In this document: positions 23,626 through 32,000 of the stretch, piece by piece
Layout of the letters: each line of letters begins with the position of its first letter
Position numbering within the stretch: the first letter of the stretch is position 1
Source of the DNA: Dickeya dadantii NCPPB 898
Lineage (GTDB): Bacteria > Pseudomonadota > Gammaproteobacteria > Enterobacterales > Enterobacteriaceae
Assembly (NCBI RefSeq): GCF_000406145.1
Contig: NZ_CM001976.1
Coordinates: forward strand, 807,260-839,259
Length of the DNA stretch: 32,000 nt
Direction: 5' to 3'
The notes under the pieces: model-generated
Told to the model about the DNA's origin: nothing
The model's input: only the letters and a program-made list of their open reading frames with translations
Databases searched by the model: none
Program-made: the position numbers and the translations under genes

Positions 23626-23778
23626 TCCTCAGGGGAGGGCGATATCAGTATGTCGGAAGATCTCTAAAAATGAAGGGTTCGGTTTAGTGGGATACTTACA
23701 GACCTAACAAGGTGCCTAAAAGGTTCGGATTTAATTAGTTTGCATCAGACTTCACGGGACAAATTACAGGCACAAAAA

Positions 23779-23808
23779 AGCCCGCGGGCTTGCGCCATGC
23801 GGGCTTTT
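23779..23808. terminator. Bidirectional-looking hairpin at the core/island junction
   Basis: The sequence is AAAAAGCCCGC-loop-GCGGGCTTTT: a 7-bp GC stem with an A-run before it and a T-run after it. Confidence 0.4.
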
Positions 23809-23997
23809 AGGGCTTCATCGGGCTGGGGGAATCTGAATTTTCAACGTAATATTATGATATTAATCATATAAATATGAATTCAGACTTTGTGTGTATACCT
23901 AAACGTATACCAATGTTGAAAAGTGATGGGGCGTTTTGCCTGCGGCTTGCCTTGTCAGGCAACGTCTTTTCATCACCGTCTTCCACGCCATTTTTAT

Positions 23998-24107: not shown

Positions 24108-24653
24108 ATGGACAGAATCACGGCTATTGAACGTTTAAACGCATTCGATAAGCAAGGGCGCTATGTTTTCACTTCCCGCGATTTAGCCAAAATTTTTCAT
24201 GAAGATCGCCCCAGAGCGTTTAATGCCGGGCTAAATCGACTGGTAAAAGATGGCATTCTGACCCGTGCGATTCGCGGGGTGTACGTCTATAACCATGCCA
24301 AAAGCAAAGACGCTTATACGCTTGAGCGCATCGTGTTAGCGCTGCGACGTGGCGAGTATAACTATCTCAGCCTTGAATCAGCGTTGTCTGAGTATGGTGT
24401 CATTTCTCAAATCCCGATTGGCCGGATCACGGTAATGACAACAGGACGTTCAGAAGAACATAAAACGCCTTTCGGTGTGATCGAATTTACCCATACCAAG
24501 AGGCCGCCTGAGCAGATTTTGCAGGATACCTATTTTGGTCATTCCCCATTAAGGCAAGCGACTAAACAAACTGCGGTGAGGGATTTACGCCGCGTCGGAC
24601 GTAACACCCATCTGATCGACGAATCGGAGCTATACCATGAATCAGAAAGTTAA
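24108..24653 (+). CDS. abiEi: Type IV toxin-antitoxin / abortive infection antitoxin AbiEi
   Basis: 181 aa. The N-terminal wHTH-like region (…FTSRDLAKIF…GLNRLVKDGILTRAIRGVYVY) is typical of the AbiEi_4 family. It overlaps the next gene by 17 nt. Confidence 0.8.
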   Translation: MDRITAIERLNAFDKQGRYVFTSRDLAKIFHEDRPRAFNAGLNRLVKDGILTRAIRGVYVYNHAKSKDAYTLERIVLALRRGEYNYLSLESALSEYGVISQIPIGRITVMTTGRSEEHKTPFGVIEFTHTKRPPEQILQDTYFGHSPLRQATKQTAVRDLRRVGRNTHLIDESELYHESES

Positions 24654-25554
24654 CTTTGCCGAGCTGGTCAGCAAAGCGATGGAATCGGCCGAGCTTGAAG
24701 GTCTTCGTAACGTGGTGGAAAAGGAGCTTTTGCACTATGACATTCTTTACTGTCTGGATAGTGCGGGTTTACTGGAACAACTTACTTTCCAGGGGGGAAC
24801 CTCGTTAAGGTTGTGTCACGGCGGAAATCGGTTCAGCGAGGATTTGGATTTTGCCGGGGGGATCGCGTTTTCCGGTGCAGACCTGAAGAACATGAAAACC
24901 TGTATTGAAGAGTATTTAGGGGGGCGCTACGGCCTTGAAGTAAACGTAAAAGAACCCCATGAGTTACGTCATGAGCCCGGTTATGAGGAAGTGCGTATCG
25001 ATAAATGGCAAGTGTCTGTTACCACGGCACCGGAAAAACGTGATATGCCAAGGCAGCGAGTCAAGATTGAGATCGCCAATATTCCAGCCTACACAAGAAC
25101 GCCGATGGCATTAAAACGTAACTATGATGTTTTACCGGATGGTTATTCCGATACATTGGTTATGTGTGAAACACTGAATGAAGTAATGTGCGACAAACTG
25201 GTTTCTCTTGTCGCCACCACAAAATATATCCGCTACCGTGACGTTTGGGACTTACCGTGGTTAATCCAGCAGAACGCAACCTATGATCTCGACCTGATCC
25301 GCAAGAAAATACAGGACTACCAAATCCCAAATTATGCTGATCTATTGGCACAGCGGATACAGAGCATTGAGCAGATTGTCGGGGATGGTCGCTTTAGCGC
25401 GGAAATGCGGCGATTCCTGCCACAAGCGGTATTTGACAGAACACTGGGGCGTGAGGCATTTAGCCAATATTTGAGTGGTGAGTTAAAAACACTCTTGAGC
25501 ACGTTACAGCAGGAGTTAAAAGGGCAGGGAGGGAAAGCACCTTTCATCATGTGA
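24637..25554 (+). CDS. abiEii: AbiEii/AbiGii-family nucleotidyltransferase toxin
   Basis: 305 aa. The NTase motif is FQGGTSLRLCHGGNRFSEDLDF. The gene is paired with abiEi. Confidence 0.8.
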   Translation: MNQKVNFAELVSKAMESAELEGLRNVVEKELLHYDILYCLDSAGLLEQLTFQGGTSLRLCHGGNRFSEDLDFAGGIAFSGADLKNMKTCIEEYLGGRYGLEVNVKEPHELRHEPGYEEVRIDKWQVSVTTAPEKRDMPRQRVKIEIANIPAYTRTPMALKRNYDVLPDGYSDTLVMCETLNEVMCDKLVSLVATTKYIRYRDVWDLPWLIQQNATYDLDLIRKKIQDYQIPNYADLLAQRIQSIEQIVGDGRFSAEMRRFLPQAVFDRTLGREAFSQYLSGELKTLLSTLQQELKGQGGKAPFIM

Positions 25555-25792
25555 ACATCCATGCCCAAATAAAAAGATTCTTCGAAAAACTGTTCACCCT
25601 CTTCACTCGATAGTTTTGTTATTTATAATCAATGCATTAATGGGTGATGAGTAACTCAGAAAGTGACGGTGACTCATCACTCTCTCCTGACAAGCTAAGA
25701 GGCTAAAGACTGCGACTATTAGTGAGAACAATAAAATGAGTGGGATGGTGATAATATAGTAGAAATTTTTAACGTCCCTGTTAAGTGAGTTA

Positions 25793-26386
25793 TCAATCCT
25801 CCCAATGGGCTTCAATGAACTGTATTTCTTTATTAACTCTAACTTCTTGTTTTTCTTTATTTCCCGAAAAGAAAAATTCTTTCCCTGACGTAAGATCAAG
25901 TACTGAATATTCAAAACCCTGATCGCCAATTGCCCTTTCCATTAAAAAGCAAATGAAATTAGCTCTCTCTTGAGTCATTTTCTCGCTATTGCTAAAATGT
26001 AGTTTTACTAATTTTGATTTTCCTTGTAGGTTTACGTTTAATTCAGGGTTGCATGATATATCTGTTTTTGCATAGTGATAGTATCTTTTGGGTGCGGGGA
26101 ATCCGGTAATGTTTTTTCCTGATTGCCACTCATTGAATACGTTAACTATTTTTTCAAAGTATATCTTTTTTGAGGAATTTTTTTCTTTTCTGCATAAATC
26201 ATAGAGCTCTGATATATGTCCTTTTTTTACTATTAATTTTTTTATTGCATCTCTTATTTTCTTATAAAAATCCTTACCCGGATGATAATCTGGTCTATTT
26301 GCTATGGATTTTATTTTGTTGATCTTTGTTTGAGGTGAGGTATTAACAGCAATTGATGAAAACTCAGCAACACCTAGTGATGGCAT
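25793..26386 (-). CDS. Hypothetical 197-aa protein: AT-rich cargo gene with no recognisable domain
   Basis: ATG at 26386 follows GGAGA-N7. The ORF is clean in very AT-rich DNA (19/60 G+C at 26101-26160). It has an AT-rich upstream region of its own, with TTGATA-N17-ATAATA on the minus strand. The product is Lys-rich, with no TM segment and no signal peptide. Confidence 0.7.
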   Translation of the reverse strand: MPSLGVAEFSSIAVNTSPQTKINKIKSIANRPDYHPGKDFYKKIRDAIKKLIVKKGHISELYDLCRKEKNSSKKIYFEKIVNVFNEWQSGKNITGFPAPKRYYHYAKTDISCNPELNVNLQGKSKLVKLHFSNSEKMTQERANFICFLMERAIGDQGFEYSVLDLTSGKEFFFSGNKEKQEVRVNKEIQFIEAHWED

Positions 26387-26586
26387 AGTATTTCTCCGTA
26401 TTGTCATTGTTATGAGGGAAAATATCACTGGTTAATCATTTGGACAATGATTTGTTAAGGGTGGGTGATTGGTGATTATTTTATTATTATTTAATATTCA
26501 GCTAATATATCAATCATGATATAACTTTTCCTTATAATCTTGAGATTAATTATATTCTAAGTTTTTTGGTGAAAAAGTATTCACGG

Positions 26587-26627: not shown

Positions 26628-28952
26628 TCAAGCCCTGTCACATTTAGGCAGCCAGTCGGCGTCTGATTCGTCTTTCAGTTCAAGGTTGGTTTGTACGCCT
26701 TGTTTGGTTCTGCCCTTGAGGTAGGTCAGCCCATATTCCGACATGATGTTAGGTAGCACTTTGCCAAAAGCCGTCAGGCTTATGGGCTTTTGATGGCCGT
26801 GCGACTCCATAAATGACAGATAGGCGTGGTACAGGTATTTACGGGGATTACGGGGCGTGATGTTGGCGTTTCCCATATACAGCCCGGTGGAGCTACTGTG
26901 TGCCCGTAGGTAGCCACAAAAATCAACCAATGGATCGGCCTGACGTTTGATTTCCAGCGCTTCGGCGGAATGTTGTTGTGCCTGTAGCAATGTCCGTGCA
27001 TCGTTGGGGTCGGCAAAGCGTTTCATCAGGTGACGCACCATCACGGCCAGTTCCGCCCGGATTTTCTCTTTCAGCTTGGGGTCGCGTTCGCTTGCCGGAA
27101 TGGGCTCGCTGAAGTGAATAATCACCCGGCGGCGAGACACGCCGCCGCTGCGGTCGCTAAAGCGCATCGGGGTGTTGTTGACGGCCAGAATCACTGCCGG
27201 AATGCGGGTGGAATAGGCATCACGGTATTTCGGGTCCACCATCACCGCATCGCCGCCGGTAATGGCTTTGATACCGGCACCATCACCGCTCCATTTCTCC
27301 TGATCAGGCAGTACGATGAATGAAAAACCAATAAGCGACGCGCGTTCACGGGAAGATTCAATGGTGTTGATGGTCGCCGCCGTGGTGTTGTCCTCGCCGG
27401 CCAGCATAGTGGCAATCTCGGCCAGAATACTTTTCCCGCTGCCGCCGGGGCCGGTCACTTCAAGGAACAGTTGCCAGTCGTAGCAGTTTGCCAGCACCAT
27501 AAACAGCGCGGCCATAATACGTGCCTGTTTATCTTCGTTGTGCCCTGCCGCACGGGTCAGCCAGCGCCAGAAGTGCGGGGCATTGTCGGCAAGGTTTTCT
27601 CCTTCCTTAAACGGCGTGTAGTCCACGTCATTAACGGTATGCAACCCGTGCTCCCTGCGGTGTGGCTTAAACTCCCCGCTGACGGTATCAAACACGCCGT
27701 TACGAAAGCCGATTAACCGGCGCTGCGGCTTGGCCTGCATGGGGATAATCAGTTTCAGGGTGTCTAACACGCTGCCAATGCTGGATGCGGTAAAGGGAGC
27801 CTGTATCTTCTGAAACAGCGCGGCGATATCCCGGCTTAACAAGCGGTAGGGTAAGGCTTTCCATGCACCGTTTTGATACTGGAAGAAGGTTTCCCCAAAA
27901 GCATCAATAGCCAGCGTGTCGCGGTAATGGTCGCATATCTTCTCCGCTTTCTCACTGGCGCCCATGGCCTTGAATTCGGCCTCGCCCAGCGACTCAAACG
28001 GGCTGGCCTTTTCCGGCTGGATAAACTCAGTCAGGTAGTGCCGTGTGACGTCTGCGCCTTCACGGCGGTACACATCGTTCCAGTCACCAAATACCGGCGG
28101 CAGAGCGACACGGCCATGTACAGCAGAAGCGGCCTGACCGGCTTTGGACTGGCCGGTGCCGTTCTCGTCCCGGTCAGCGGCGATCAGCAAGGTCGCCGCC
28201 GGGTGGCGTGTTTTCAGTTCACGGGCAAGGGATAGCAGGTTGTTAGCGCTGAGTGCGACATACACAGTATCACCGGTTAGCCGATGCAGTGTTAACCCGG
28301 TGGCATAGCCTTCAGCCAGCCAGATAACGGTGGTCTGTTTGCCACTGAAGCAGTAAAACGTGCCTTTAACCTGCCCGCCTTTCAGCGTGCGTTTGTCGCC
28401 CTGTGCATTAATTAACTGGATGTTTACCACCTCGCCATCGTGCGTGGTCAGCGGCACCAGTACATCACCGGGCTGATAGACGATGCCGCCCACGCGCAGC
28501 GGTTTGCCCTGTAGGGTGAGTACGTCCACGTCCGGCCAGCCTTTGGCGCTCAGGTAGGCATTGCCGGACTGTGTAACCGTTTCTTTGATTTTGGCCTGTG
28601 CCTGAACTGCCGCCCGTTGTCGGGCGGCGTCGTTATCATCATCGTCGGAAGTTGATGCTGCCGGGCTATCCGGCAGCGCCCCCAGCAACGCGCCCACTTT
28701 CAGGGCGGCGTCGGTTGTCGTCAGGTTCAGGGCTTTCTCAACCAGATTCAGTCCGTCACCCGCGCCACACTGGTTACAGAACCATGTGCCGCGCTCCTCT
28801 TTGTTATCGAAGCGGAAACGGTCTTTGCCACCGCATATCGGGCAGGCGCTATGCCGCCCGGCTGCGTCAATAGAAATCCCCAGCAGGGGGAGGAGTTGCG
28901 GCCAGTGGCTGCTGGCGCGTTTCACGGCCTGTGTCACGGTAGGTTGTGCCAT
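26628..28952 (-). CDS. P4 alpha-type bifunctional primase / helicase / origin-binding protein
   Basis: 774 aa. The N-terminal zinc ribbon is CPICGGKDRFRFDNKEERGTWFCNQCG. The TOPRIM motifs are LAEGYATG and LIAADRDENG. The Walker A motif is TGPGGSGKS, followed by FIVLPDQEKW. Confidence 0.9.
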   Translation of the reverse strand: MAQPTVTQAVKRASSHWPQLLPLLGISIDAAGRHSACPICGGKDRFRFDNKEERGTWFCNQCGAGDGLNLVEKALNLTTTDAALKVGALLGALPDSPAASTSDDDDNDAARQRAAVQAQAKIKETVTQSGNAYLSAKGWPDVDVLTLQGKPLRVGGIVYQPGDVLVPLTTHDGEVVNIQLINAQGDKRTLKGGQVKGTFYCFSGKQTTVIWLAEGYATGLTLHRLTGDTVYVALSANNLLSLARELKTRHPAATLLIAADRDENGTGQSKAGQAASAVHGRVALPPVFGDWNDVYRREGADVTRHYLTEFIQPEKASPFESLGEAEFKAMGASEKAEKICDHYRDTLAIDAFGETFFQYQNGAWKALPYRLLSRDIAALFQKIQAPFTASSIGSVLDTLKLIIPMQAKPQRRLIGFRNGVFDTVSGEFKPHRREHGLHTVNDVDYTPFKEGENLADNAPHFWRWLTRAAGHNEDKQARIMAALFMVLANCYDWQLFLEVTGPGGSGKSILAEIATMLAGEDNTTAATINTIESSRERASLIGFSFIVLPDQEKWSGDGAGIKAITGGDAVMVDPKYRDAYSTRIPAVILAVNNTPMRFSDRSGGVSRRRVIIHFSEPIPASERDPKLKEKIRAELAVMVRHLMKRFADPNDARTLLQAQQHSAEALEIKRQADPLVDFCGYLRAHSSSTGLYMGNANITPRNPRKYLYHAYLSFMESHGHQKPISLTAFGKVLPNIMSEYGLTYLKGRTKQGVQTNLELKDESDADWLPKCDRA

Positions 28953-28962
28953 GTGTTGCCCT

Positions 28963-29175
28963 TCAGTGCAGTGTGGAGTCGTTCTGGTCGGGGTCGTTCT
29001 GGTCGTCGATAGCGTCGGGCCTATCCAGCGTGACCGAGAGCACTTCTAAGCGTTCGGCCAGCACAAACAACAGCACTTCTTTTGCCATCGGGTTATCCAG
29101 CTCAATCACGGCATAGGTCAGGGCGCGGCACTGGTCGGTAATTTCTTCTGCGGTCAGGGGCGTGGCATCAAACAT
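28963..29175 (-). CDS. Hypothetical 70-aa acidic protein, translationally coupled to the Icd-like gene
   Basis: The ATG at 29175 overlaps the icd-like stop (ATGTTTGA). The gene ends 10 nt before the alpha start. The C-terminus DRPDAIDDQNDPDQND is strongly acidic. Confidence 0.5.
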   Translation of the reverse strand: MFDATPLTAEEITDQCRALTYAVIELDNPMAKEVLLFVLAERLEVLSVTLDRPDAIDDQNDPDQNDSTLH

Positions 29176-29365
29176 GGCGGGCACCCCGCAGCGGCAGGCG
29201 GCCAGCAAACGACAACACGTAGTCACGTGCCAGCAAACGGCGGGCGCTGATTTCATCCGGGGCGATAACGGCTTCACGGTGCGGTAAGGCGCGTAATTCC
29301 GCGCGGCGCACGGCCAGAAACAGAAAGGTAAATAGCGGGTGTGACGGGATTGGGGTGGCAGCCAT
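29168..29365 (-). CDS. Icd-like (host cell division inhibitor-like) small protein
   Basis: 65 aa: MAATPIPSHPLFTFLFLAVRRAELRALPHREAVIAPDEISARRLLA…. This resembles the Icd-like proteins found after C4/CI RNAs in P1/P4-type elements (by recollection). AAGGAGG lies 8 nt upstream of the ATG. Confidence 0.6.
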   Translation of the reverse strand: MAATPIPSHPLFTFLFLAVRRAELRALPHREAVIAPDEISARRLLARDYVLSFAGRLPLRGARHV

Positions 29366-29421
29366 GTGGCAGCCTCCTTGAAGTAACGGTTACCGCTACC
29401 ACCAGAAACGCCAATTTCAGG

Positions 29422-29500
29422 GGTGGTAGCCCAGACGGGGTTGGCGTAACCGGACTTCAAGGAAACCGGCGCTTCCGAAGAAGCCCCCGCCTGAGCCACC
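29422..29500 (-). ncRNA. P4 CI / P1 C4-like antisense immunity RNA (cloverleaf-like)
   Basis: Minus-strand fold:
- Outer stem GGUGGCUCAG / CUGGG(CUA)CCACC.
- Inner stem GCGGGG / CCCCGU.
- Hairpin GCUUC-UUCG-GAAGC.
- Hairpin GCCGG-[UUUCCUUGAAGU]-CCGGU.
The loop of the last hairpin (seqB) is complementary to two ACUUCAAGG sites on the same transcript. Confidence 0.6.
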
Positions 29501-29567
29501 ATAATTTGGATGCAGTGACGGCATAAAGTGTGCCGCACGTTATGCAAGTGTGCTAAGGCTGCGACGT

Positions 29568-29590
29568 AAAAAAAAGACGCATGGCGCGTC
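29568..29590 (-). terminator. Intrinsic terminator directly after seqA (immunity terminator candidate)
   Basis: The minus strand reads GACGC-GCCAU-GCGUC followed by U8. It begins 8 nt after the seqA match (29598-29606). Confidence 0.65.
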
Positions 29591-29761
29591 TGAGTCGCCT
29601 TGAAGTTAATCGGGACGCCAATCCCGGCTGTCGATTTTGCGACAGCGATGGAACTATAACGCCAAGAAGCCCCGGCAGGCAAGCCGGGGAAAGGGATAAA
29701 TTGCGTACTCATAACAGCCTCGGCAGTTGGTCAGCACGTCGCCAGTGCGGGATTAAAATGA

Positions 29762-30022
29762 TCATGCATGCTCCTCCTGTCTGCGGGCGGCGATACGTTC
29801 AGCCACCCAGTGATGAATTTCGGACTCAACCCATGCGACATTCTTCCCACCCAGCGGAACACGGGCGGGAAAGGCGTTGCGGCTGCTCAGTTCGTACAGT
29901 GTCGAGCGGGAAATACCGGTAACGTGCAACACTTCCGGCAGGCGCATTAAGCGCTCTCTGGCCGGAACCTGTGGCATAGGAGGCACAGTGGGAAGGGGAG
30001 CTTGGGGTGTGGTTGACAACAT
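29762..30022 (-). CDS. alpA: AlpA/Vis-family phage regulatory (excisionase-like) protein
   Basis: …RLMRLPEVLHVTGISRSTLYELSSRNAFPARVPLGGKNVAWVESEIHHWV… is the AlpA HTH signature. The start could be an internal Met. Confidence 0.8.
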   Translation of the reverse strand: MLSTTPQAPLPTVPPMPQVPARERLMRLPEVLHVTGISRSTLYELSSRNAFPARVPLGGKNVAWVESEIHHWVAERIAARRQEEHA

Positions 30023-30138
30023 AGGGCGCTACCTCGTTAATGTCCGTCCGGCTCTGGCCGGATGGCGCTGGATTTCTCTGGTAGCTCGCTATTATGTGAA
30101 TATTTTCAGGGGTGGCAACAAAGGGAAAAACAGGAAAA

Positions 30139-30417
30139 GGTGAACAAAAAACAGTCGGAGATTGCCACCAATTCCGATGATTACTGAATATTGCCCAATG
30201 TTTGCCAATATTCCTTATTCGATAAAAATCAAATTATTGGTGGCTATTTATATGGCCTGAATTGATAGTAAAAAACATCTGAAAACCGCTCGCCAGAAAA
30301 AAGCGCCAACAATTCAGGTGAACAGTGTGAACACCGGGTGATGAGTGTTATATCCACTCTTCATCCCTTTGTCTGTTGATTTATCTGATTTTTCTATCAG
30401 GTGAAGAGTGGTTAACA
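30139..30417. repeat. Cluster of P4-type iterons (GGTGAACA = complement of TGTTCACC): candidate satellite origin
   Basis: Perfect octamers lie at 30139-30146 and 30317-30324. 7/8 copies lie at 30326-30333 (TGTGAACA), 30400-30407 (GGTGAAGA) and 30410-30417 (GGTTAACA). Confidence 0.5.
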
Positions 30418-30473
30418 GTTTTATAAAAGTGTGGCGGTTGATAGAGGGAGGCAACCTGTCATAAACCCGGTCT

Positions 30474-30491
30474 TGTGTGGGAATGGGCACA
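30474..30491 (+). promoter_or_regulatory. TGT-N12-ACA dyad: an Ogr/Delta-type activator site of a helper-dependent late promoter (Psid-like)
   Basis: The site is TGT-GTGGGAATGGGC-ACA. Its centre lies about 83 nt upstream of the ATG at 30566. Confidence 0.5.
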
Positions 30492-30565
30492 ATCGGCCCA
30501 GATAGCGGCGTTGTGTGGTGAATTGCACCATAGCAGCCAGATGATAACCCATACAGAGAACGACC

Positions 30566-31330
30566 ATGAGCCAGACAACGCCACAAAGCAATAATCCGGT
30601 TGATATCCCGGATGTTCTGAAAAAAATGACTGACACTTACCTGAAGAAGCGAGAAGCACACCTCGCTAACGCCAGTGAACTGGATAACATCACGACGGCG
30701 ATGATGCGAGCCAACGCGCAGCAGGCCGCTACCAAAGCAGAAAATCAGCTTTCTGATACCGAATGGCGCACCCGTTTTCTTAAAGCGCGTGGGGAAATGA
30801 CGGAGGAACTGAAGGCCCAGCAGTTAAAGCGTCTGGCACAGCGTGAACTGGCGCACGAGTATGATGGGTTGCTGGCGCAGTTGGAAATCGACCAGCTCCG
30901 GCAGCAGGCAACGTGCCATGCATCGGCCAAAGCGTGCTGTCATGCACATGCCAGCGCGCTGCGTGATTACGCCGAGTGGGAATTAAGCCAGGCGTTAGAC
31001 CGTATTAGTACAGCGCTGATTCGGGCTATCACGTTAAAGCGGCACATGCTGAGTATCACCACGTCTGAATTTACCGAAGGACTTTCCTATCAAAAACCCG
31101 ATAAGGTGGTCATGGAACAGGTGGTCAACTGCCTGATAGCCAAGTCGAATAACTATCGCTTTGAAATGGACAACGAGCCAGTCTTGTCCGTGCTGGGGCT
31201 TGATTCACCTTCGTTGCCACATGCAGATTTTCCCCCCGTGGCAAATCCGATCGGCCGAATGAATTTTTTCCGCGACTTAAAAGAAAAAGAGGCTGCGTTA
31301 ACAACGCGCGGGCGCAATATGGTGGATTGA
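30566..31330 (+). CDS. Sid-like (capsid size determination-like) helical protein. Assignment is tentative.
   Basis: 254 aa and helix/coiled-coil rich. It is the first gene after the TGT-N12-ACA promoter, rightward of the alpA/ori region as in P4. Segments such as …EPVLSVLGLDSPSLPHADF… resemble my recollection of P4 Sid. This has not been verified by alignment. Confidence 0.45.
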   Translation: MSQTTPQSNNPVDIPDVLKKMTDTYLKKREAHLANASELDNITTAMMRANAQQAATKAENQLSDTEWRTRFLKARGEMTEELKAQQLKRLAQRELAHEYDGLLAQLEIDQLRQQATCHASAKACCHAHASALRDYAEWELSQALDRISTALIRAITLKRHMLSITTSEFTEGLSYQKPDKVVMEQVVNCLIAKSNNYRFEMDNEPVLSVLGLDSPSLPHADFPPVANPIGRMNFFRDLKEKEAALTTRGRNMVD

Positions 31331-31377
31331 ATTAATTAGCCGAATTATCATTTCATTAATTTTAATATCAGCATATC

Positions 31378-31403
31378 GCCCGCCATCGCGCGGGCTTTTT
31401 TTT
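31378..31403 (+). terminator. Strong intrinsic terminator after the Sid-like gene
   Basis: GCCCGC-catcgc-GCGGGC followed by T8. Confidence 0.75.
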
Positions 31404-31604
31404 GAGGTTTTTCTCTGGCTAGCGATTTTTTGATCGTGCATGTGTACAGTGCATGAATTTGCATGTGGAACTTACCTCTCAATTTGCCCTGTCGCGCCAG
31501 TGCTGGTGTGGCCTGAGCTTCTCCATGCAACTGCATGAAAACCGCTACATGAAGCGGGTAGGCGTGGCGGGGGCACAATTGCGCGCTACCCTCCATGATT
31601 ATTT

Positions 31605-32000
31605 TTAACCCCGAGAATTATCGATAGCGCGTTTGACATTTTCAAAAGAAGGATCACCCATTTTTAGGGCTTCGTTCATGTCAAAATAGTTAGGTTTGTT
31701 TATGATTTTATTCCAAGTAGTGGATAAATAAATTTTAAAAGCATTGGCACGATTGTATCGATCTTCAATGTTAAATGATTCACATGATGTACGCATGCTA
31801 TTAACTATTTCAGGGTTAAATATAGGTGTATCGAAGAGCATTGCGTCAAGATAAGCGAAATCACTAATCCAACGTTTTAGATGATATTGTCCTATTGATG
31901 TTGTTCTAAATTTAGTTGGCATATCACCAATTAAGCCTGTTTCATCTTCTTCAAATGTGAAGCGTTGAGAGGTTTCAATGAGTTTTTTGTTTGTTGATTT
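31605..32000 (-). CDS. C-terminal part of an unassigned, very AT-rich gene. The 5' end is beyond the window.
   Basis: The frame is open from 32000 down to the stop at 31605-31607. The text upstream of the first Met (KSTNKKLIETSQRFTFEEDETGLIGD-MPTKF…) is in frame with no stop. No motif is recognised. Confidence 0.6.
   Translation of the reverse strand, partial: KSTNKKLIETSQRFTFEEDETGLIGDMPTKFRTTSIGQYHLKRWISDFAYLDAMLFDTPIFNPEIVNSMRTSCESFNIEDRYNRANAFKIYLSTTWNKIINKPNYFDMNEALKMGDPSFENVKRAIDNSRG

Follow-up and report, generated by a model that had tools for sequence, protein, structure and literature searches.

The 32,000-nt stretch of Dickeya dadantii NCPPB 898 analysed here (the window) ends inside a gene for an 813-aa protein that appears to join a PD-(D/E)XK nuclease-like domain to an ORC/Cdc6-STAND-like P-loop ATPase, and this gene sits in the cargo hotspot of a P4-like satellite. 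We consider it a good candidate for single-gene phage defence. The reading that we lean towards, taken as a whole, is a stand-alone anti-phage nuclease-ATPase that fills the cos-to-int hotspot alone and is triggered by DNA. Its parts differ in strength: the identity of the gene and its hotspot position are established almost beyond doubt, and a defence role is probable from the genomic context. A mechanism in which assembly of the ATPase licenses the nuclease, suggested by the architecture and by conservation of the catalytic motifs, is tentative and falls somewhat short of even chances.

The part of the gene inside the window is as follows.

31605..32000, minus strand: 3' end of the 813-aa gene, codons 683-813 and stop, cut by the window edge (open frame; match to proteins P0076 and P0281)

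Read from position 32000, the frame comprises 131 sense codons up to a stop at 31605-31607, and it runs off the window at 32000. It lies on the strand opposite to a 254-aa Sid-like gene (30566-31330). The initial annotation had described at least 131 codons open to the window edge opposite that gene, and translation gave the same frame. It had also called the frame strikingly AT-rich, which is borne out by a GC content of 0.333, against 0.551 in the satellite backbone (26628-31330) and 0.577 in the host part of the window. Because stop codons are expected at about 0.075 per codon (about one in 13) in DNA this AT-rich, as estimated from the composition of the fragment, a run of 131 codons is very unlikely to arise by chance (probability about 4e-5, estimated likewise from composition). 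Homologues of the 131-aa fragment were found at a best E value of 3e-63, and the fragment alone matched no family in Pfam, PADLOC or NCBIfam. The peptide quoted in the initial annotation was read correctly, and its remark that the visible C-terminal text matches no nameable motif agrees with these searches; the full protein does have nameable domains.

The C terminus of P0281 (813 aa) is identical to the fragment, an exact match present on 11 contigs, and residues 683-813 of P0076 (813 aa) agree with it at 130 of 131 positions. Only the final 16% of the protein thus falls inside the window, in keeping with the earlier view that the gene is truncated by the window. Contigs that carry P0076 or P0281 (L039 and L049-L052) share 93-97% DNA identity with the window across the overlap. 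The gene is intact, at 813 aa, in the sister satellites L039, L049 and L050 (93-95% DNA identity to the window), and homology to L049 extends from window position 32000 down to 23805, except for about 25 nt around 29750. With the 131-aa fragment as query, ten mostly fragmentary hits had suggested a small, rare protein; this was overturned by the full-length query, which returned at least 670 proteins, and by a scan of one genome per species, in which most of the 37 loci have a homologous frame of 810-830 codons.

The copy in NCPPB 898 might instead be a decaying or truncated remnant, with the open frame as its only surviving C-terminal piece. The window ends inside the gene, with the full gene beyond view, and broken copies of the family occur elsewhere, one through an ISL3 element and frameshifts and others as C-terminal database pieces of 100-230 aa. 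Against this, all three members of the 90% cluster of P0076 are 813 aa long, P0281 matches exactly on its 11 contigs, and the fragment differs from L039 by only 3 nucleotides, 2 of them synonymous. Every residue within 683-813 that is invariant in an alignment of 59 family members is also kept in the fragment. We regard a remnant as highly improbable.

The satellite itself is recognizable from the following features.

26628..28952, minus strand: P4 alpha-type primase-helicase (Pfam Zn_Ribbon_Prim, Toprim_3, D5_N, DUF5906 and Pox_D5; phrog_2249, E = 5e-175)
29762..30022, minus strand: AlpA/Vis-type regulator (Pfam Phage_AlpA, E = 5.5e-19)
30566..31330, plus strand: Sid-like late gene, 254 aa (32% identity, E = 6e-37, to the Sid-position protein of L044; phrog_6165, E = 6e-55)
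31378..31403, plus strand: hairpin resembling an intrinsic terminator, GCCCGC..GCGGGC and then T8, downstream of the Sid-like gene (read from the sequence)
31440..31586, no strand assigned: conserved P4 cos-proximal region (alignment with the hotspot flanks of two E. coli P4 constructs, E. coli CH4799 and L039)
31561-31579, no strand assigned: cos-like 19-mer GGCGTGGCGGGGGCACAAT, within the conserved cos-proximal region

The reference for the Sid position is L044, a canonical Enterobacter P4-like satellite, and the similarity to its protein upholds the Sid-like label that the neighbouring gene had been given. In PHROGs, phrog_6165, the family of the Sid-like protein, is named 'Psu-like'; this is apparently a misnomer, as the 254-aa protein has no similarity to Psu. 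An exact look-up of the Sid-like protein and of protein P0007 returned no record, and megablast of window positions 30500-32000 against complete E. coli genomes gave no match. The 19-mer is probably the cos end, judging by the cos sequences of P2, 186 and P4. No delta or psu gene follows the Sid-like gene in the window satellite, so that the hotspot is bounded by sid, the terminator and cos.

Homology to the E. coli P4 hotspot flanks stops at about 31586, 18 nt short of the stop codon of the gene. On the other side, sister satellites have a P4-type integrase, a gap of 25-30 nt and then the 813-aa gene; in L049 the distance from the end of the integrase (NF007246, E = 7e-177) to the gene is 25 nt. 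With the cos flank and the integrase this close, the 813-aa gene is the sole cargo between cos and int. The gene order in the sisters is integrase, 813-aa gene, Sid-like gene (on the other strand), AlpA, small ORFs and alpha primase, and in L049 the alpha primase is followed by a small ORF and AbiEii/AbiEi, the same as in the window. The initial annotation had placed the gene at the P4 hotspot, distal to the late genes and toward the integrase. These distances confirm that placement, and with alpha, AlpA, the Sid-like gene and the cos flank all in the window, the locus lies within the satellite.

The psu-int hotspot of P4 was defined by Rousset et al. 2022 (PMC9122126), whose Table S1A lists many alternative cargos in this slot, and E. 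coli P4 elements with the common cos flank carry Toga or Hailong there. The 813-aa gene has the marks of satellite hotspot cargo, namely a place between the late-gene/cos end and the integrase and variable content of that place among related satellites. It resembles validated P4 cargo in occupying the cos-int slot, in being AT-rich relative to the backbone and in being swapped between related satellites; its protein is not among the validated P4 systems PARIS, Rst_, Crouga, Bandua, Aernus, Toga, Reve and Hailong (PMC9122126, PMC13586616). Orthologues that are 82-86% identical over their full length occur in E. coli, Klebsiella and Enterobacter in the same int-to-psu slot. The order in E. coli CH4799 is smpB, ssrA, int, the gene and psu, and in Klebsiella quasipneumoniae and the Enterobacter cloacae complex the orthologue often lies in a decayed element beside a Psu remnant. 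The E. coli orthologue, WP_000258270, appears in Table S1A of Rousset 2022 as a psu-int locus annotated 'hypothetical'. The family is large, uncharacterised and already catalogued as 'hypothetical' at the P4 hotspot, and a literature search found no experimental work on it. We consider a defence role probable because the gene holds the hotspot position in four taxa, moves as a single gene, and belongs to a kind of locus with a favourable prior: 6 of 8 randomly chosen P4 hotspot loci of unknown function protected against phages (Moura de Sousa et al. 2026, PMC13586616). Such a candidate is no surprise in kind, since a defensive function is a frequent outcome for P4 cargo that was at first unknown.

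The gap from the int stop to the cargo start is about 23-33 nt in all four taxa (L039 1-272; L048 13926-13950; L040 9967-10001; L049 9975-10001), and the 3' end of the integrase gene is more AT-rich than the backbone (0.44 against 0.53 in L039). The short gap and the AT-rich int end suggest that the end of int is exchanged along with the hotspot cargo and that read-through from int may serve the cargo gene. In L049 and L052 (661-8498) a P2-like prophage (GPA, Dam methylase, CP76/Cox-like, CI repressor, integrase) directly adjoins the satellite integrase, which places a helper adjacent to the satellite in these two sister genomes.

Four parts make up the 813-aa protein, which begins with a PD-(D/E)XK nuclease-like domain and continues with a P-loop ATPase of the ORC/Cdc6-STAND-KAP type, a winged-helix domain and, at the C terminus, a helical bundle. 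It was modelled with AlphaFold2 (AF2) at full length on 118 family members (pLDDT 81.5, pTM 0.75), and the last 196 aa were modelled separately (pLDDT 90.9). The window encodes only the wing of the winged helix and the helical bundle.

31899..32000, minus strand: last helix and beta-hairpin wing of the winged-helix domain, residues 683-716 (AF2 models; weak Foldseek matches)
31608..31898, minus strand: C-terminal helical bundle, residues 717-813, motif YH..W / F.YLDAM.FDTPI (AF2 secondary structure)

Among 59 members down to 25% identity, R714 is invariant in the wing segment, and E691 and T716 nearly so. Y732, Y773 and L774 are invariant in the bundle across members equally diverged, where G719, Y721, F730, D734, D739, T740, P741, R763 and R766 are nearly invariant. 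The model of the last 196 aa resembles winged-helix proteins of the PadR, GntR and MarR types, with weak Foldseek matches (E >= 6e-3).

The same 59 members share E27, D62, E74, A75 and K76, the putative PD-(D/E)XK site. The PD-(D/E)XK pattern calls for an acidic residue and then (D/E)xK on an alpha-beta-beta-beta-alpha-beta core; the region fits it, with predicted strands 50-52, 63-65 and 71-75 and flanking helices, and the matches to the curated nuclease models that were listed per protein stay below the gathering cut-off (HSDR_N_2 in 16 of 59 members, best E = 2.3e-4; HSDR_N in 6 of 59). Also invariant are G306, G309, G311 and K312 of the Walker A motif (G306-x2-G-x-G-K312) and D440, N441 and D443 of Walker B (D440-N-x-D443). 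An N thus takes the place of the E that follows the aspartate in Walker B, which would suit a slow switch and could also mean weak or no hydrolysis. All Pfam matches across the 59 members fall below thresholds, with AAA_22 in 56, AAA_16 in 53, NACHT in 43, nSTAND in 29, KAP_NTPase in 22 and the HSDR_N_2 already mentioned. A profile search of PDB sequences found no solved structure related by sequence, only P-loop motif matches to Rab GTPases. The likeness to small GTPases is confined to that motif.

In structural comparison, the first seven Foldseek ranks against the PDB are archaeal Cdc6/Orc1 and eukaryotic ORC/Cdc6 proteins (E = 1e-5 to 1e-3). They are followed by the STAND proteins NRC2/3, CED-4, Apaf-1, Avs4, Avs5 and RdrA, and by TnsC at E = 7e-3 to 1e-2; Foldseek against BFVD gave only generic clamp-loader and AAA matches. 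At the level of the fold the protein belongs with the ORC/Cdc6-clade AAA+ ATPases, since it has their core, lid and C-terminal winged helix together with invariant Walker A and B. ORC/Cdc6 ATPases (1fnn, 2qby; in defence BrxC, BrxD and DUF499) have the ATPase core, helical lid and winged helix in the same order. The 813-aa protein differs from them in its extra N-terminal PD-(D/E)XK-like domain and C-terminal helical bundle, its gene stands alone unlike those of BREX-type operons, and the similarity in sequence is marginal (Pfam ORC-CDC6-like in 4 of 59 members, best E = 2e-4).

ORC/Cdc6 proteins initiate replication, and Pfam AAA_22, to which most members have a weak match, is the TniB/TnsC family. 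Together with the TnsC structures in the Foldseek results and the constant position of the gene beside the integrase in satellites, this could point to a function of the mobile element itself, such as a replication or partition initiator-like ATPase, a TnsA/TnsC-type target selector or an addiction module. We consider such a function very unlikely. The satellite already has the alpha primase-helicase, the same slot in related E. coli satellites holds other cargo (PMC9122126), and experiments support this slot as a hotspot of defence genes. No neighbour gene is conserved across the 37 genome loci, whether methyltransferase, transposase or other partner. A TnsA/TnsC-like role in transposition was set aside because a transposase partner is not conserved.

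The STAND proteins among the structural matches raise a different possibility, an abortive-infection sensor of the Avs/NLR-like kind, in which a STAND switch would sense a phage protein and oligomerise, and the nuclease would then cut all cellular DNA so that the cell dies. The layout is shared: a single chain carries a nuclease effector at its N terminus, a switch NTPase in the middle and a recognition module at its C terminus, the order seen in Avs. P4 hotspots are also known to hold NLR-like proteins with Mrr_cat or BpuSI_N nuclease heads (Rousset 2022, PMC9122126), and the NACHT and nSTAND signals, weak as they are, recur in 43 and 29 of the 59 members. The NACHT matches listed, however, are confined to the P-loop segment (profile positions 1-31 of 167) and are below the cut-off, so that the family models recognise no NACHT or NB-ARC-type STAND module, and the PADLOC models for Avs, bNACHT and NLR matched none of the 59 members. 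The protein is about half the size of Avs1-4, and its 190-aa C terminus consists in the AF2 models of a winged helix and a helical bundle of about 100 aa rather than TPR-like or other repeats that could act as a sensor. Its ATPase is closer to ORC/Cdc6, which supplies the best structural matches, than to NACHT or NB-ARC proteins. We therefore judge an Avs-like sensor to be unlikely.

The check with PADLOC on the full-length family and its neighbours, proposed in the initial annotation, brought no defence family past threshold for the 813-aa protein, and PADLOC, NCBIfam and Pfam alike placed it in no known defence, transposase or housekeeping family. PADLOC gave single-domain matches only in the 59 members, to mad8 on the ATPase core and to DrmMI on the N terminus. 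The best of them, mad8 of MADS (PDLC04140), covers residues 299-464 in 27 of 59 members (best E = 2.5e-7). The operon of MADS is methylation-based and comprises eight genes, and no mandatory partner is conserved beside the 813-aa gene; the match is at the level of the domain, and the mad6-mad8 operon context was not found. Matches to mad2 in four neighbour genes are matches to the MADS methyltransferase model, and the authors of MADS describe this methyltransferase as homologous to components of R-M systems. With NCBIfam 20.0, neither P0281 nor P0074 nor the E. coli orthologue matched any family at E <= 0.01. The validated systems of DefensePredictor include nuclease and P-loop proteins, and in a comparison limited to the DS systems with an NCBIfam model only DS41_1 appeared, at 16.7 bits against a cut-off of 370.

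Reve, a single-gene KAP/AAA P-loop system from a P4 hotspot (pFD425; PMC13586616), resembles the candidate in being one hotspot gene with Pfam AAA_22 and KAP_NTPase signals and ORC-like Foldseek matches. It differs in its size of 586 aa and in having an N-terminal P-loop and no nuclease domain. Identity of the two was ruled out, as Reve (translated from the preprint's Dataset E1) gave blastp E >= 1.1 and no match to the family HMM.

A further alternative is a type IV-like restriction enzyme, that is, an NTP-driven Mrr/HsdR_N nuclease following the logic of McrBC, which would attack modified or marked phage DNA and have no cognate methylase. Some members bear the JGI name 'predicted type IV restriction endonuclease/GTPase SAR1 family protein', the HSDR_N and HSDR_N_2 models match weakly, the gene works as a single-gene cassette, and it has no conserved methyltransferase partner. 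Yet PADLOC mREase_IV matched 0 of 59 members while matching two neighbouring genes, so the models do respond at these loci. The ATPase does not resemble McrB, and its small-GTPase likeness is limited to the P-loop motif. This explanation also overlaps heavily with the one we favor, differing only in the signal recognised, and we consider it quite unlikely, a little more so than an Avs-like sensor.

In the DNA-triggered nuclease-ATPase that we favor, the winged helix and the helical C terminus would recognise invading DNA or a DNA-bound state. Binding of ATP by the ORC/Cdc6-like module would then drive assembly on the recognised DNA, and assembly would license the N-terminal nuclease to cut the invading DNA. 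The protein may more generally stand for a widespread and hitherto unrecognised class of single-protein immune nucleases in which an ORC/Cdc6-like ATPase and winged helix would read a feature of invading DNA, assemble on that DNA and fire a fused nuclease of the restriction type. The features read could be replication origins, DNA ends or unusual structures, and methylation-based self-marking would play no part. The existence of this class is a possibility that we place on the doubtful side. Were the protein active, it would represent a compact one-gene defence system from a family whose roughly 1,800 diverged representatives extend through Proteobacteria and further, on satellites, plasmids and genomic islands. 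Such a system would link an ORC/Cdc6-type DNA-recognition ATPase directly to a nuclease effector, allow a test of how phage DNA is distinguished from cellular DNA when methylation plays no part, and add to the Enterobacterales P4 hotspot a further candidate beyond those of the 2022 and 2026 studies.

An exhaustive search recovered 1825 representatives of the family at 50% identity, 520 of them at E <= 1e-30, and nearly all of the 1825 are collinear at about 800-830 aa. The family is present on 30 plasmid records, is rare in E. coli, where 2 of 5426 complete genomes carry it, and was absent from 50,697 phage records searched with tblastn; phrog_14719 matches the family although no phage record does. 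Among the 120 nearest ORFs are Hachiman and AbiEi, restriction genes of types I and IV, MzaA, PDC candidates, integrases, transposases and a relaxase, along with ordinary metabolic genes. At non-satellite loci about half of the nearest neighbours are housekeeping genes (such as UvrA, RNR, PurL and peptidase M3). The large collinear family, the lack of a conserved neighbour, the nearby defence and mobility genes and the plasmid copies count for the reading that we favor; the housekeeping neighbours, the rarity in E. coli, the absence from phage records, the sub-threshold domain matches and the N in Walker B count against it. In one metagenomic member (L001, 6713-10594) the ISL3 transposase insertion lies after the nuclease domain and is accompanied by later frame breaks, and several of the 100-230-aa database entries that are C-terminal pieces of the family start at one shared internal Met.

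Beyond the alpha primase, at the distal end of the satellite, the window has a second set of features.

23766..23821, no strand assigned: distal satellite end (blastn; L049 homology stops at 23805)
24108-24653, plus strand: AbiEi (Pfam AbiEi_4)
24637-25554, plus strand: AbiEii (Pfam AbiEii)
25793-26428, minus strand: AT-rich ORF of 211 aa (GC 0.32)

The alpha-distal region 24108..26428 is a second variable cargo site. It holds AbiEi/AbiEii and the 211-aa ORF in the window and in L049, and a 1223-aa DUF4011/AAA_11 helicase with KwaB instead in the sister L050 (17881-22442). The 211-aa ORF matched no family in Pfam, PADLOC or NCBIfam and had only a marginal PHROG match (E = 0.004). ARAGORN found no tRNA or tmRNA in the window, L040, L044, L049 or L050. 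At the distal end, a 57-nt terminator-like sequence (23766-23821) is 91-93% identical to repeats that flank the int and gene module at ssrA in Klebsiella and Enterobacter, and a shorter match to it, of 38 nt (92%), lies just after ssrA in E. coli. The likeness of the 57-nt sequence to the ssrA-flanking repeats, a comparison of sequences, is only suggestive as a pointer to the integration site.

Two of the remnants that consist of int and the gene have neighbours of their own. In Klebsiella (L040, 1375-8219) the remnant lies beside a Hachiman system (HamA and helicase), and in Enterobacter (L044, 1-2072) it forms a tandem with another P4-like satellite, an intact one, in whose hotspot lie a UvrD-helicase and a DUF2290 protein, the known Rst_HelicaseDUF2290 type.
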